Assembly (NCBI RefSeq): GCF_056712565.1
Contig: NZ_CM160072.1
Strand: one strand, 5' to 3'
DNA length: 64,000 nt
Shown: positions 10,834 through 58,863 of the stretch, one piece after another
Numbering within the stretch: position 1 is the first letter of the stretch
Layout of the letters: each line of letters begins with the position of its first letter
Notes under the pieces: model-generated
Told to the model about the DNA's origin: nothing
What the model saw: only the letters and a program-made list of their open reading frames with translations
Databases searched by the model: none
Made by a program: the position numbers and the translations under genes

Positions 10834-11022
10834 CAGGGACATCCTTTTATCATCGGGAATACGAAAGAAAAGGGAGAATAAACGTCTTACTTATAGAACA
10901 GTGAAGAATGCCACAATTTTACGCTTTGAAAATGATGACACTATCACAGTTGGCGCATTCATTAACGATAGGGTATAAGTAAAACAATAAGTTAACACCG
11001 CTCACAGAGACGAGGTGGAGAA

Positions 11023-11763
11023 ATGTTAGATCAAGTATGCCAGCTTGCACGGAATGCAGGCGATGCCATTATGCAGGTCTACGACGGGACGAAACCGATG
11101 GACGTCGTCAGCAAAGCGGACAATTCTCCGGTAACGGCAGCGGATATTGCCGCTCACACCGTTATCATGGACGGTTTACGTACGCTGACACCGGATATTC
11201 CGGTCCTTTCTGAAGAAGATCCTCCCGGTTGGGAAGTCCGTCAGCACTGGCAGCGTTACTGGCTGGTAGACCCGCTGGATGGTACTAAAGAGTTTATTAA
11301 ACGTAATGGCGAATTCACCGTTAACATTGCGCTCATCGACCACGGCAAACCGATTTTAGGTGTGGTGTATGCGCCGGTAATGAACGTAATGTACAGCGCG
11401 GCAGAAGGCAAAGCCTGGAAAGAAGAGTGCGGTGTGCGCAAGCAGATTCAGGTCCGCGATGCGCGCCCGCCGCTGGTGGTGATCAGCCGTTCCCATGCAG
11501 ATGCGGAGCTGAAAGAGTATCTGCAACAGCTTGGCGAACATCAGACCACGTCCATCGGCTCTTCGCTGAAATTCTGCCTGGTGGCGGAAGGACAGGCGCA
11601 GCTGTACCCGCGTTTCGGGCCAACGAATATTTGGGATACCGCCGCTGGTCATGCTGTGGCTGCAGCTGCCGGAGCGCACGTTCACGACTGGCAGGGTAAA
11701 CCGCTGGATTACACTCCGCGCGAGTCGTTCCTGAATCCGGGGTTCAGAGTGTCTATTTATTAA
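11023..11763 (+). CDS. cysQ: 3'(2'),5'-bisphosphate nucleotidase
   Basis: 246-aa ORF; inositol monophosphatase-family motifs (WLVDPLDGT). Confidence 0.9.
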
Positions 11764-12310
11764 TTAATTTATGCAGCAGGTCCATCACTTGCTGCACCTC
11801 TTCCTGAGTAAGCGCCCCGTCTTTGGCCCATTGCACGCGACCGTCTTTATCCAGCACCACTACAGCGGAACTTTTTTCATCCAGCTGCCAGGCACCGCGT
11901 GCGACGCCATTGCTATCAACAATAAACTGCGACCAGGGATAAAGCTTTTTATTACTCTCCAGACTGCTGCGCACAAACATCCCTGAACCCGGAATCGCGT
12001 CGTCGGTGTTAACAATGGTGGTGGTCTGGTAACGATCGTGCGGTAACTTCGCTGATTTAATCGCTTCAATCAGCGTCGCGTTTTTCTCTTTTGCAGAGGT
12101 GCGACCAGCAATATGTTGCAGTACTCGCACTTTTCCCACTAACTGCGCGCTGTTCCAGGTTTTGTAGCTAAACTGATCTTTATCAAGCACCAACTCGCCA
12201 CGATCGGTGATGCCAATCGGCGGCACTCGCTGACCGGTTTCGAACTGATGTGCGGAAGCCATCATCGGCAACAGCAGGCAGGTGAGTGCCAGAATCTTGC
12301 GTAGGGTCAT
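11753..12310 (-). CDS. ytfJ: periplasmic protein YtfJ
   Basis: 185-aa ORF with N-terminal signal peptide; 3' end overlaps cysQ 3' end by 11 bp. Confidence 0.85.
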
Positions 12311-12634
12311 GGTGTTTCCTTCTTATGATATGCAGGTGATCCGACCACTTGGGTCTGAGTTTTAATCATATGTGCTATTTATCGAATTTCCCGCAAGTGT
12401 GATGCCAGTTTGCGGTCAAGCGCACAAATCATATGAAAAATGAATGCTTATACTGAAGACCGCGCTTCGGTAAAAAGATAATTCTGAATAATTGTAACCT
12501 TTAGGTAAAAAAAGTTATACGCGGTGGAAACATTGCCCGGATAGTCTATAGTCACTAGGCATTAAAATTTGCGCCTCATAATAGTTGGGCCGATTGTGGC
12601 ACCGCAAAGGCGTAATACTCAGCAGGAGATAACA

Positions 12635-12841
12635 ATGAAAATTTTCCAACGGTACAACCCACTTCAGGTGGCGAAGTACGTAAAGATCCTGTTCCGTGGA
12701 CGGTTATACATCAAGGACGTTGGCGCTTTTGAATTTGATAAGGGTAAGATTCTTATCCCAAAAGTGAAGGATAAGCTGCATTTGTCAGTGATGTCCGAAG
12801 TTAACCGTCAGGTTATGCGTCTGCAAACAGAGATGGCTTAA
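12635..12841 (+). CDS. ytfK: small protein YtfK (DUF1107)
   Basis: ORF 12569-12841 trimmed to Met at 12635 preceded by AGGAGA; 68 aa. Confidence 0.85.
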
Positions 12842-12843
12842 CC

Positions 12844-12877
12844 AAAGTGCTATGCAGTAAAAAGTGCTATGCAGTAA
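12844..12877. repeat. perfect 17-bp tandem duplication (AAAGTGCTATGCAGTAA x2)
   Basis: Read directly, immediately 3' of ytfK stop. Confidence 0.85.
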
Positions 12878-12881
12878 TAAG

Positions 12882-12904
12882 ACGGCTCCTGATTCAGGAG
12901 CCGT
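12882..12904. terminator. bidirectional hairpin between ytfK and ytfL
   Basis: ACGGCTCCTG-att-CAGGAGCCGT perfect 10-bp stem. Confidence 0.6.
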
Positions 12905-12918
12905 TGATGTTTCTGGGG

Positions 12919-14262
12919 TTATGCGACGCTTTCTTCTTTATCTTTAGCGTCAGGCAGTTTTGGCGAAAGGGCGGTGGCTTTGCTGTCGATTCGGGTCACC
13001 AGCAGCTGGTCGATGCGGTAGTTATCGATATCCACCACTTCAAATTTGTAGCCGGCGAATTTCACCGAATCGGTGCGTTTCGGGATCTTACGCAGCATAA
13101 ACATCATAAAGCCGCCGATGGTTTCGTAGTTGCCCGACTGCGGGAACTCGTCAATATCCAGCACGCGCATGACGTCGTCAATAGGCGTGCCGCCGTCTAT
13201 CAGCCATGAGTTCTCATCACGGGCGACAATTTGCTCTTCCAGCCCCTGGCCGACCAGATCGCCCATCAGTGTGGTCATCACGTCGTTGAGGGTGATGATC
13301 CCCACTACCAGCGCGTACTCGTTCATGATCACCGCGAAGTCTTCACCTGCGGTTTTAAAACTTTCCAACGCCTCTGAAAGGGTTAACGTATCCGGCACAA
13401 TCAGCGTGTTGCGAATTTGTACGCCGCTGTTCAGTGCCAGGCTTTGGTTAGCCAGCACGCGGTTCAGCAGGTCTTTAGAATCGACATAGCCGATGATGTG
13501 GTCAATATCTTCATTACAGACGAGAAACTTAGAGTGCGGATGTTCCGCAACCTTATTCTTCAGACTTTGCTCATCTTCGTGGAGATCAAACCAAATCACG
13601 TTTTCACGCGGTGTCATTGAAGACGGAACGGTACGGGATTCCAGCTCAAAGACGTTTTCAATCAGCTCGTGTTCCTGTTTACGTAACACGCCCGCCAGCG
13701 CACCGGCTTCCACTACCGCGTAGATATCATCAGAAGTGATGTCATCTTTACGTACCATTGGCAGTTTGAAAATACGGAAGATTATGTTCGCCAGTCCGTT
13801 GAAGAACCACACCAGCGGGGTGCAAACGTACAGGCAGAAGCGCATCGGGTTGATGATACGCAAAGCCACAGCTTCTGGCGCAATCATACCGATGCGTTTC
13901 GGGGTTAAATCCGCAAACAGGATAAACATGCCAGTCACTAACGAGAAAGAGAGAATAAAGCTCAGTTGCTCAGAGAGTTCTGCCGACATATAGCGGGAGA
14001 ACAGGCTGTGAAAAGCTGGAGAAAATGCCGCATCACCGACGATACCGCCGAGAATCGCCACTGCGTTCAGACCGATCTGGACCACGGTAAAGAACATGCC
14101 GGGATTTTCCTGCATATTCAAAACGCGTTGGGCATTTATATTGCCTTCATCAGCCAGCAGTTTAAGTTTGATTTTGCGTGAGGCGGCAAGCGAGATCTCG
14201 GACATCGAGAAGAACGCACTTACAGCGATCAAACAGAGTATGACTAAAATACTGTTTAACAT
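12919..14262 (-). CDS. ytfL: CNNM/HlyC-CorC family membrane protein (DUF21-CBS-CorC)
   Basis: 447-aa ORF; N-terminal TM region, CBS pair and CorC_HlyC C-terminus. Confidence 0.9.
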   Translation of the reverse strand: MLNSILVILCLIAVSAFFSMSEISLAASRKIKLKLLADEGNINAQRVLNMQENPGMFFTVVQIGLNAVAILGGIVGDAAFSPAFHSLFSRYMSAELSEQLSFILSFSLVTGMFILFADLTPKRIGMIAPEAVALRIINPMRFCLYVCTPLVWFFNGLANIIFRIFKLPMVRKDDITSDDIYAVVEAGALAGVLRKQEHELIENVFELESRTVPSSMTPRENVIWFDLHEDEQSLKNKVAEHPHSKFLVCNEDIDHIIGYVDSKDLLNRVLANQSLALNSGVQIRNTLIVPDTLTLSEALESFKTAGEDFAVIMNEYALVVGIITLNDVMTTLMGDLVGQGLEEQIVARDENSWLIDGGTPIDDVMRVLDIDEFPQSGNYETIGGFMMFMLRKIPKRTDSVKFAGYKFEVVDIDNYRIDQLLVTRIDSKATALSPKLPDAKDKEESVA

Positions 14263-14429
14263 ATCTTATCCGACCTTTCAGGCCAGATCCTCGGAAGGGG
14301 AAGTTGATTAATTTGTGTGAAATACACATTGAAAGCCGATTCGAAGAAAGTGAACCGGCATTTTCAGTGGCTAGTATAGCGTAAGGTACTGTAAAGCCGC
14401 CAGAGGGTTAAAATTCAGACAGCTGAAAA

Positions 14430-14555
14430 ATGAAAAACTGCCTGATGCGCTATGCCGAACAGGCCTACGCAGTCCCCGCAATATATTGAATTTGGACGAT
14501 TTTGTAGGCCTGGCATTTTGTTTACGCCGTATCCGGCATAAACAAAATGCACTTT
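14430..14555. repeat. REP elements
   Basis: GCCTGATGCGC...AGGCCTAC / GCCGGATACGGCG palindromic units between ytfL and msrA. Confidence 0.6.
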
Positions 14556-14584
14556 ATCAACAATCTACATTTGTACCCGTAACG

Positions 14585-15223
14585 CTATGCTTCCGGCGGC
14601 AGACAGACGCCAATTCCGCCAATTCCACAGTAACCATACGGGTTTTTATGCAGATATTGCTGGTGGTCATCTTCGGCATAATAAAACGGTGTGGCGTTAG
14701 CGATTTCCGTGGTGATGCGACGATCGTCATCGGCGGCAAGCATCGCCGCCTGAAAACGTTCCAGACTGGCGCGAGCGGCGGCATCCTGTTCTGGGGTCAG
14801 CGGATAAATCGCTGAACGATACTGCGTGCCGTGGTCATTGCCCTGACGCATTCCCTGGGCGGGATCGTGATTCTCCCAAAATACTTGTAGCAACTGCTCA
14901 TAGCTGATGACGGATGGATCGTAAACAATGCGCACCGCTTCGGCATGGCCAGTATCGCCGGAGCACACTTCCCGATAAGTCGGATTTGGCGTATAGCCGC
15001 CGGTATAGCCTGCGGCGGTGCTGTAAACGCCGGGTAACTGCCAGAACAGACGCTCCACACCCCAGAAACAACCCATCGCAAAAATGGCAATCTCCATTCC
15101 GTCAGGTACATTGGTCATTGAGTGGCCGTTGACCGCATGCAGTGTGGCTACGGGCATCGGGGTGTTACGTCCAGGCAGGGCATCGGCGGGGGAAACCAGA
15201 TGCTTTTTATCAAATAAACTCAT
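14585..15223 (-). CDS. msrA: peptide methionine sulfoxide reductase A
   Basis: ORF 14585-15289 trimmed to Met at 15223 (MSLFDKKHL); GCFWG active-site motif. Confidence 0.9.
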
Positions 15224-28323: not shown

Positions 28324-29697
28324 ATGCGCATTCATATTTTAGGAATTTGTGGCACGTTTATGGGCGGTCTGGCGATGCTGGCGCGCCAGTTAGGCCATGA
28401 AGTAACGGGTTCGGACGCCAATGTGTATCCGCCGATGAGCACCTTACTTGAGAAGCAAGGCATTGAACTGATTCAGGGTTACGATGCCAGCCAGCTCGAT
28501 CCACAGCCGGATCTGGTGATTATTGGTAACGCCATGACCCGTGGAAATCCGTGTGTGGAAGCGGTACTGGAAAAAAACATCCCTTATATGTCAGGTCCGC
28601 AGTGGCTGCACGATTTTGTGCTGCGCGACCGCTGGGTGCTGGCCGTTGCCGGTACACACGGCAAAACCACCACGGCGGGAATGGCGACCTGGATTCTGGA
28701 ACAGTGTGGTTACAAACCGGGATTTGTGATCGGTGGTGTGCCGGGGAACTTTGAGGTTTCGGCGCGTCTGGGCGAAAGCGACTTCTTTGTTATCGAAGCG
28801 GATGAGTACGACTGCGCCTTCTTCGACAAACGCTCTAAATTTGTCCATTACTGCCCGCGTACGCTGATCCTCAACAACCTTGAGTTCGATCACGCCGATA
28901 TCTTTGACGACCTGAAAGCGATCCAGAAACAGTTCCACCATCTGGTGCGTATCGTTCCGGGGCAGGGGCGTATTATCTGGCCGGAAAACGACATCAACCT
29001 GAAACAAACCATGGCGATGGGCTGCTGGAGCGAGCAGGAGCTGGTGGGCGAGCAGGGGCACTGGCAGGCGAAAAAGCTGACCACCGATGCTTCCGAATGG
29101 GAAGTCTTGCTGGATGGCGAAAAAGTGGGCGAAGTGAAATGGTCGCTGGTAGGCGAACATAATATGCACAATGGCCTGATGGCGATTGCAGCGGCTCGCC
29201 ATGTTGGTGTAGCGCCGGCAGATGCCGCTAACGCGCTGGGTTCGTTTATTAACGCTCGTCGCCGTCTGGAGTTGCGTGGTGAAGCGAATGGCGTCACGGT
29301 ATATGACGATTTTGCCCATCACCCGACGGCGATTCTGGCAACGCTTGCGGCGCTGCGTGGCAAAGTTGGTGGTACGGCGCGCATTATTGCCGTGCTGGAA
29401 CCTCGCTCGAATACCATGAAAATGGGGATCTGCAAAGACGATCTGGCACCTTCATTAGGTCGTGCCGATGAAGTCTTCCTGCTGCAACCGGCACATATTC
29501 CGTGGCAGGTGGCAGAAGTGGCAGAAGCCTGCGTTCAGCCTGCACACTGGAGCGGCGATGTGGATACGCTGGCAGATATGGTGGTGAAAACCGCTCAGCC
29601 TGGCGACCATATTCTGGTGATGAGCAACGGCGGTTTTGGTGGTATTCATCAGAAACTGCTGGATGGTCTGGCGAAGAAAGCGGAAGCTGCGCAGTAA
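28324..29697 (+). CDS. mpl: UDP-N-acetylmuramate:L-alanyl-gamma-D-glutamyl-meso-DAP ligase
   Basis: 457-aa ORF; Mur ligase motifs (GTHGKTTT). Confidence 0.9.
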   Translation: MRIHILGICGTFMGGLAMLARQLGHEVTGSDANVYPPMSTLLEKQGIELIQGYDASQLDPQPDLVIIGNAMTRGNPCVEAVLEKNIPYMSGPQWLHDFVLRDRWVLAVAGTHGKTTTAGMATWILEQCGYKPGFVIGGVPGNFEVSARLGESDFFVIEADEYDCAFFDKRSKFVHYCPRTLILNNLEFDHADIFDDLKAIQKQFHHLVRIVPGQGRIIWPENDINLKQTMAMGCWSEQELVGEQGHWQAKKLTTDASEWEVLLDGEKVGEVKWSLVGEHNMHNGLMAIAAARHVGVAPADAANALGSFINARRRLELRGEANGVTVYDDFAHHPTAILATLAALRGKVGGTARIIAVLEPRSNTMKMGICKDDLAPSLGRADEVFLLQPAHIPWQVAEVAEACVQPAHWSGDVDTLADMVVKTAQPGDHILVMSNGGFGGIHQKLLDGLAKKAEAAQ

Positions 29698-32032: not shown

Positions 32033-32422
<390 letters not shown>

Positions 32423-58624: not shown

Positions 58625-58860
<236 letters not shown>

Positions 58861-58863
58861 CAA

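Follow-up and report, generated by a model that had tools for sequence, protein, structure and literature searches.

The 17-bp sequence AAAGTGCTATGCAGTAA that occurs twice between the convergent genes ytfK and paeA (ytfL) in the 64-kb window, the whole stretch of 64,000 nucleotides that was analysed, is a small variable-number repeat with alleles of one, two or three units in E. coli. Judged by complementarity, each copy carries a conserved 14–15 nt perfect pairing site for the small RNA FnrS, and strains are predicted to differ in the number of FnrS sites on the tail of the ytfK mRNA. FnrS is an Hfq-dependent, FNR-induced, anaerobic small RNA. We propose that the unit is probably an FnrS docking module which existed as an ancient single copy in the Enterobacteriaceae and became duplicated or triplicated in E. 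coli, and that the ytfK tail would act mainly as an FnrS sink.

Direct reading gives the order ...GAGATGGCTTAA CC AAAGTGCTATGCAGTAA AAAGTGCTATGCAGTAA TAAG ACGGCTCCTG ATT CAGGAGCCGT TGATGTTTCTGGGG TTA..., with the ytfK stop codon at 12839–12841 and the paeA stop codon, on the minus strand, at 12919–12921 (Table 1). Tandem Repeats Finder (TRF) reports the array at 12844–12881 with a period of 17, 2.2 copies and the same consensus AAAGTGCTATGCAGTAA, both copies being perfect and head-to-tail. The first-pass annotation had described a perfect 17-bp tandem duplication followed by a hairpin with a 10-bp stem between ytfK and ytfL, and direct reading, TRF and the terminator scan confirm this arrangement. 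It had also placed the repeat immediately after the ytfK stop; the repeat does lie in the region directly downstream, with a gap of two nucleotides (CC).

Table 1. Positions of genes, repeat copies, FnrS boxes and terminator elements in the window
Feature	Position	Strand	Basis
ytfK CDS, 68 aa, stringent-response modulator YtfK, DUF1107	12635..12841	+	ORF list; ytfK annotation in matching records
Repeat copy 1 of the 17-bp unit AAAGTGCTATGCAGTAA	12844..12860	+	Direct reading, TRF; copy missing from one-copy alleles in alignment
FnrS box 1, GTGCTATGCAGTAA, 14 nt, perfect complement of FnrS nt 65–78	12847..12860	+	Exact-complement scan; duplex −23.7 kcal/mol
Repeat copy 2 of the 17-bp unit AAAGTGCTATGCAGTAA, terminator-proximal	12861..12877	+	Direct reading, TRF
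FnrS box 2, GTGCTATGCAGTAAT, 15 nt, perfect complement of FnrS nt 64–78	12864..12878	+	Exact-complement scan; duplex −24.8 kcal/mol
Terminator-like hairpin, ACGGCTCCTG-ATT-CAGGAGCCGT, stems 12882–12891 and 12895–12904, loop ATT	12882..12904		Terminator scan, both strands
Conserved tail TGATGTTT (RNA TTGATGTTT), interrupted U-tract for ytfK	12905..12912	+	Nearly invariant across genera
paeA (ytfL) CDS, convergent with ytfK	12919..14262	−	ORF list and annotation in matching records

In 64 kb of random sequence about 4e-6 perfect adjacent duplications of 17 nt would be expected, which rules out chance, and the occurrence of the two-copy sequence in about 1,034 independent complete genomes excludes an assembly artefact. 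The 64-kb window contains no further match to the 17-mer with up to three mismatches, and two matches were obtained in 0 of 100 shuffles. Only three tandem arrays scoring at least 50 are present in the whole window. Among repetitive sequences elsewhere in it are a 96-bp unit of REP/BIME-like sequence (GCCTGATGCGACGCT...GCCGCATCCGACA) at 58660–58861, with 2.1 copies of 90% identity, and an imperfect 18-bp tandem repeat (GCTGCTGGAGCGAGCAGGA) at 29021–29056, with 1.9 copies of 88% identity. Other roles considered for the unit were rejected. Both a small ORF (ATG CAG TAA within each unit) and an extension of ytfK by stop-codon readthrough are incompatible with the variation among genera in the distance and frame between stop codon and box, and a DNA-level palindrome for protein binding was discarded because the symmetric part is TGC...GCA only.

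The distribution of the repeat was analysed with a 181-nt query around it, which found a single match in each of 5,419 out of 5,426 complete E. coli genomes. Copies were counted by cross-checking one-, two- (two haplotypes), three- and artificial four-copy queries. Among about 5,419 complete genomes one copy is present in about 4,030 (about 74%), two copies in about 1,034 (about 19%) and three copies in about 350 (about 6.5%); these counts have an uncertainty of about five genomes and include partial matches that fall in high-identity bands, such as the IS-disrupted locus of strain AF40. BLAST identity bands are also misleading when alleles differ by two units, since the alignment then splits into two high-identity pieces. 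In aligned representatives the three alleles differ by whole units only (one copy in HKUOPY1 and USVAST219, two in the window and K-12 MG1655, three in O157:H7 strain 1130), and the units are perfect in every lineage examined. A four-copy allele was not found as a single-piece match among the top-ranked matches, the artificial query giving two-piece matches to two-copy genomes only. The suggestion in the first-pass annotation that the repeat may be polymorphic between strains is thus borne out by alignment and counts. The converse situation that it had named, exactly two copies in all related genomes, does not exist: about 74% of E. coli and the outgroups have one.

Other differences between strains were seen around the locus. 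In E. coli AF40 (NZ_OZ547043.1; L005:2585-3290) the single FnrS box and the terminator hairpin lie about 700 bp apart, an IS200/IS605-family element (tnpA) having inserted precisely between the two. E. coli FHI_NMBU_11 (L082:4863-5843) has an IS621 (IS110-like) insertion between paeA and msrA. The gene ytfI, located between cysQ and ytfJ (window about 11000–12310; loci L074–L085), shows presence/absence polymorphism: it is absent from the window, USVAST219, HKUOPY1 and 24AR0180 and present in K-12, O157:H7, O55:H7, APEC37, NCTC9112 and H9Ecoli. YtfJ is one residue longer in strains without ytfI (185 aa) than in those that have it (184 aa).

Over the 6.1 kb surrounding the repeat, the window shows 100% identity to UTI89, APEC O1, IHE3034, NU14 and UM146, which we take to be phylogroup B2/ST95 strains. 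The 60 three-copy genomes listed are all O157:H7 or unserotyped isolates from O157-typical sources (Sakai, EDL933, 86-24, Xuzhou21). The flank haplotype of these three-copy strains is also found with two copies, in O55:H7 (CB9615, RM12579, DEC5A-E), in the sorbitol-fermenting O157 strain 493/89, in LSU61, and in EC4115, TW14359, SS17 and SS52.

The ancestral state could be deduced from 56 enterobacterial ytfK loci, which were collected in a one-genome-per-species scan with a degenerate pattern for the YtfK C-terminus. A single copy is found in E. albertii, Escherichia sp. E1V33, Escherichia sp. MOD1-EC7003 and two divergent 'E. coli' representatives, as well as in Salmonella and other enterobacterial genera (about 50 other species). 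Since all outgroups have one copy, one copy is ancestral. In a neighbour-joining tree of 13 strains, built on 2.58 kb of flanking sequence with the repeat left out, two-copy alleles occur in two separated groups. One consists of the window and 24AR0180, beside the one-copy strain USVAST219; the other comprises K-12, APEC37, NCTC9112, H9Ecoli and O55:H7, with the one-copy strain HKUOPY1 nested within it. Copy number has therefore changed repeatedly, with at least three or four events for 13 strains, a figure that recombination could lower. Recombination cannot explain the step from two to three copies. The flanks of O55:H7 CB9615 (two copies) and O157:H7 1130 (three copies) show zero substitutions in 2.58 kb, so this change must be very recent.

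The first-pass annotation had suggested that the repeat is a recent slipped-strand duplication, which is true in part. With identical 2.58-kb flanks the change from two to three copies is very recent, but the two-copy allele is not a private variant, being fixed in ST95-type B2 strains (e.g. UTI89), in the K-12 lineage and in O55:H7. Slippage is the standard mechanism for expansion and contraction of an existing array, and the later copy-number steps are compatible with slippage or with unequal exchange among copies already present. The junction of the first duplication has no microhomology, so for that step slippage is inferred rather than demonstrated.

The relation to FnrS follows from the sequence of the unit. 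FnrS nt 65–78 are TTACTGCATAGCAC (UUACUGCAUAGCAC; fnrS from K-12), the exact reverse complement of unit positions 4–17, and the unit can be described as a 3-nt A-rich spacer followed by a 14-nt box (GUGCUAUGCAGUAA). In the copy next to the terminator, or in the only copy where there is one, the match reaches 15 bp; in the window this copy provides the sole 15-mer complementary to FnrS. These matches were obtained with an exact-complement scan and 30-nt windows, which replaced a global RNAduplex comparison of the whole ytfK transcript with FnrS because the latter returned meaningless 150-nt 'duplexes'. No other FnrS complement of at least 14 nt was found in 128 kb of window sequence, both strands counted. 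The predicted cost of opening is about 5 kcal/mol per box and 3.4 kcal/mol for the FnrS site, which lies in a weak internal hairpin of FnrS. The cost is alike for every copy in one-, two- and three-copy tails, the opening energies of the box copies differing by about 1 kcal/mol only.

The core of the box, GTGCTATGCAGTA, is nearly invariant in the ytfK tail of Escherichia, Salmonella, Citrobacter, Enterobacter, Lelliottia, Leclercia, Kosakonia, Trabulsiella, Pluralibacter, Yokenella, Silvania and others. In 39 of 56 enterobacterial species the 13-nt core is unchanged, and its mean pairwise identity is 0.95, versus 0.73 at the fourfold-degenerate sites of ytfK. The spacers flanking the core vary in length and sequence across genera. 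The core of the box is also retained in the Rfam frnS consensus. Of 5,392 E. coli genomes, 5,389 have an FnrS of at least 99% identity, so the same sRNA faces one, two or three boxes. Among the 56 loci, those of Klebsiella, Pseudocitrobacter and Entomohabitans have no box in the ytfK tail, and those of Intestinirhabdus and Franconibacter have a degraded one. The box-less loci, namely L016, L017 and L049 (Pseudocitrobacter), L021, L069 and L072 (Klebsiella) and L043 (Entomohabitans), keep ytfK and a terminator hairpin. A conserved ACGGCTCC...GGAGCCGT hairpin was noted in six of them; that of Klebsiella indica (L069) has a variant stem and that of Entomohabitans (L043) is unrelated. In several non-Escherichia loci (L034, L044, L065, L067 and L047/L055/L059) a second GCAGTA is found 8–12 nt downstream of the box, e.g. 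GTGCTATGCAGTAGTTAAAGCAGTATAAAA; such copies may have decayed from earlier duplications of the module.

Could the repeat be anonymous and its match to FnrS coincidental or an artefact? Short matches do arise: AAGACAATATGGA at 32112–32124 (+), within an ORF at 32036–32422 that resembles cybC (cytochrome b562), can pair perfectly over 13 nt with another part of FnrS, nt 37–49. About 0.2 such 13-nt matches are expected by chance per window, and a row for cybC was not found in the RIL-seq text of bioRxiv 10.1101/2025.06.26.660752. For a perfect 14–15 nt match the situation is different, since by chance only about 3e-5 complementary 14-mers are expected between FnrS and a tail of 80 nt. The box is moreover conserved across at least 12 genera above the level of synonymous sites, it coincides with the top-ranked experimental partner of FnrS (bioRxiv 10.1101/2025.06.26.660752), and the repeat is present in more than 1,000 independent assemblies. 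A coincidental or artefactual match is thus highly improbable. The duplication had at first been considered for its effect on the spacing between the ytfK stop and the terminator; complementarity and cross-genus conservation indicate that the unit does not merely alter this spacing but is a putative conserved FnrS pairing site.

The hairpin downstream of the repeat has 10 Watson-Crick pairs, with an eleventh, G-T, pair if G12881 is counted, and is common to the convergent genes ytfK and paeA, the terminator scan accepting both strands. It had earlier been described as a terminator shared by ytfK and ytfL; it is terminator-like on both strands and has covariation support. In 51 enterobacterial sequences, pairing is kept in 99.1% of the cells of nine common stem pairs, and compensatory changes occur at two of the pairs (U-A to C-G in seven sequences and C-G to U-A in nine). 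The E. coli T-runs are interrupted on both strands, though the consensus scan accepts both; the run on the ytfK side is UUGAUGUUU. Most other genera have a clean A-run to the left of the hairpin, corresponding to a U-tract for paeA. In minimum-free-energy folds the tail TTGATGTTT pairs with CAGUAAU of the terminator-proximal box, giving an extended lower stem. The last box is accordingly predicted to be partly engaged in this extended stem and the upstream copies to be free of it. The tail TGATGTTT is conserved beyond the need of a plain U-tract. A scan of positions 12300–13100 against Rfam with E-values up to 10 returned only two spurious snoRNA matches (E >1), both upstream of the repeat.

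Published Hfq interactome data show that the ytfK 3′UTR and FnrS are strongly associated on Hfq in a two-copy strain, where they form the most abundant MG1655 pair. A 2025 preprint mentions a 'highly abundant FnrS-ytfK pair', and in its tables 'ytfK.EST3UTR - fnrS' takes rank 1 in each of the two wild-type Hfq-FLAG RIL-seq replicates, where it yielded 112,573 and 85,192 chimeras (bioRxiv 10.1101/2025.06.26.660752). About 21% of the FnrS chimeras and 57% of the ytfK-tail chimeras in replicate 1 belong to this pair, and with an anti-Hfq antibody 12,986 chimeras were obtained (bioRxiv 10.1101/2025.06.26.660752). The association depends on the faces of Hfq: the rim mutant R16A gave 11 chimeras or none detected, the distal-face mutant Y25D 995–1,985 (a 50–100 fold drop) and K31A about 11,000–15,000 (bioRxiv 10.1101/2025.06.26.660752). 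As is usual for an mRNA-like RNA paired with an sRNA, the ytfK fragment stands at RNA1 and FnrS at RNA2 (bioRxiv 10.1101/2025.06.26.660752). The cells were MG1655 derivatives, i.e. of a two-copy background, grown in LB to an OD600 of 1.0, and the label in the tables is at the level of ytfK.EST3UTR, coarser than nucleotide-level mapping to the box (bioRxiv 10.1101/2025.06.26.660752). Reads run about 43 nt past the hairpin (bioRxiv 10.1101/2025.06.26.660752). Because the pair was undetected by in-vivo-ligation iRIL-seq in the same preprint, part of the large RIL-seq signal could have formed during harvest or in the lysate. In Salmonella, ytfK mRNA is 31.8-fold enriched with Hfq in co-immunoprecipitation (PMC2515195), and sigma-S strongly raises ytfK RNA while YtfK protein is unchanged (PMC5437024), a discordance that fits an RNA-level role.

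Several explanations for the role of the box and its copies can be considered. It is quite possible, if short of probable, that a single box is functional and the duplication is neutral, the extra copies being by-products of slippage that hitch-hike in ST95, the K-12 lineage and O157:H7 lineage I. A single copy suffices in three quarters of E. coli and in every outgroup, copy number tracks clonal lineages and not ecology, and its range is narrow (1–3), with no four-copy allele among the top-ranked matches. The copies nevertheless stay perfect in all lineages examined, each has a similar predicted accessibility, and the strain with the rank-1 chimera has two of them; none of these points is decisive against neutrality.

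A further possibility, which we hold to be rather doubtful, is that FnrS regulates ytfK, pairing upstream of the terminator to alter mRNA decay, 3′-end formation or translation, so that extra copies would strengthen control. The RNA1 position of the ytfK tail is typical of a target, and the dependence on the distal and rim faces of Hfq resembles that of canonical sRNA-mRNA pairs (bioRxiv 10.1101/2025.06.26.660752). The terminator-proximal box abuts and partly overlaps the predicted extended terminator stem, and the discordant regulation of ytfK RNA and protein in Salmonella (PMC5437024) would also be in agreement with such control. However, the site is far from the ribosome-binding site, exact-complement scanning and duplex prediction found no strong FnrS complementarity in the ytfK 5′ region, and ytfK was not found as an FnrS-regulated gene in any searchable text. 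If FnrS does regulate ytfK, oxygen status would be linked to the YtfK-SpoT stringent-response switch.

The ytfK 3′UTR might also yield an sRNA of its own, composed of box and terminator, with the box as a seed for other mRNAs and FnrS as one partner. The layout, in which a variable linker separates a conserved single-stranded box from a conserved terminator, resembles that of 3′UTR-derived sRNAs, and the ytfK tail forms 83,095 chimeras with other RNAs (bioRxiv 10.1101/2025.06.26.660752). Yet the tail occupies the RNA1 (target) position in these data (bioRxiv 10.1101/2025.06.26.660752), a RIL-seq-based predictor of new sRNAs lists ytfK as a target only (PMC8175672), the interrupted U-tract UUGAUGUUU is poor for binding to the proximal face of Hfq, and there is no Rfam match. 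An sRNA derived from the ytfK tail is thus unlikely, and less likely than either neutral copies or control of ytfK by FnrS.

In the mechanism that we prefer, with the tail acting mainly as an FnrS sink, FnrS would dock at the box in the ytfK 3′UTR, downstream of the stop codon and ahead of the terminator that ytfK shares with paeA. Tandem duplication within E. coli and triplication in part of O157:H7 would most likely have occurred by replication slippage or unequal exchange. Every copy could be a usable FnrS site in view of the similar opening energies, and the A-rich duplication junction GUAAAAAGUG may add an ARN-type contact for the distal face of Hfq. Sigma-S, cAMP-CRP, phosphate limitation and oxidative stress all influence the transcription of ytfK. 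By serving as a decoy or sponge-like sink, the tail would tie ytfK transcription to the availability of FnrS, with a capacity that scales with ytfK transcription and box number. In crude duplex predictions sodB and sodA pair with the 5′ end of FnrS and not with nt 64–78, so a sink at the latter segment would have to sequester or destabilise FnrS, not mask the seed used by these targets. We infer the sponge role from the abundance of chimeras and from the discordance between RNA and protein in Salmonella; FnrS control of ytfK may apply instead.

The proposed site can be compared with known mRNA-embedded decoys and sponges, such as the chbBC intergenic trap for ChiX, 3′ETS-leuZ for RyhB and RybB, SroC from the gltI 3′UTR for GcvB, and AspX for RyhB. 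Like these, the ytfK tail is a transcript segment with extended complementarity to an Hfq-dependent sRNA that is prominent in Hfq interactome data, and the candidate sink is expressed under its own regulation. In contrast to them, the ytfK box would pair with an internal hairpin region of FnrS and not with a documented seed. The ytfK site is also tandemly repeated with a strain-variable copy number, variation that we did not find described for these systems.

The canonical FnrS targets sodB, sodA, maeA, gpmA, folE and chuS reportedly have their sites at or near the ribosome-binding site or start codon. The pairing of ytfK with FnrS is Hfq-dependent, as it is for these targets, but the ytfK site lies after the stop codon, involves a different FnrS segment and has a much longer perfect pairing. 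Another partner of FnrS is AsxR, an anti-sRNA encoded by the Stx2 phage of EHEC O157:H7, which pairs with the terminator loop of FnrS and destabilises it (Tree et al. 2014, PMC4104026). The ytfK box is likewise predicted to base-pair with FnrS, and AsxR is present in O157:H7, the serotype of all named three-copy strains. Whereas AsxR is a separate phage sRNA, the ytfK box belongs to the core genome, is located in a 3′UTR and is predicted to pair with FnrS nt 64–78.

As a repeat, the locus resembles the intergenic E. coli VNTR loci used in MLVA typing in having a short head-to-tail unit and a lineage-informative copy number. It differs from them in that only 1–3 copies were seen, which are stable within clones, and in that the unit appears to be an RNA-pairing site. 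No MLVA or other paper containing the unit sequence was found in a literature search. With bidirectional intrinsic terminators the region shares one GC-rich hairpin between the convergent ytfK and paeA stop codons, with covariation support, but the E. coli U-tracts are interrupted on both strands.

In a recent E. coli interactome no Hfq-mediated RNA pair is more abundant than FnrS-ytfK (bioRxiv 10.1101/2025.06.26.660752), and the searchable literature gives no description of the pairing site, conservation or purpose of FnrS-ytfK; nor did searchable text yield work on an FnrS site in ytfK, on the repeat, on the ytfK 3′UTR or on the unit or box sequence. K-12 has two sites versus one in most E. 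coli and three in Sakai/EDL933-type O157:H7. Because the number of sites differs by strain, results obtained with K-12 may not transfer quantitatively to other strains. Within O157:H7 the repeat is a simple lineage marker that splits Sakai and EDL933 from EC4115 and TW14359. The alleles with one, two and three sites also form a natural series for asking whether a sink in a 3′UTR sets the activity of an sRNA, and the ytfK site would link oxygen sensing (FNR, FnrS) with the YtfK-SpoT stringent-response switch. As a tentative proposal, which we regard as the more speculative part of this work, the ytfK 3′UTR might be a copy-number-variable FnrS sponge in which gain and loss of 17 bp tunes how strongly FnrS is drained on induction of ytfK and how fast the anaerobic FnrS regulon is released. 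If so, the states that induce ytfK, and with it the sponge, would be stationary phase, carbon or phosphate exhaustion and oxidative stress, and in Sakai/EDL933-type O157:H7 the triple site would act beside the phage anti-sRNA AsxR. The repeat would then serve an sRNA network as a heritable dosage dial driven by slippage.
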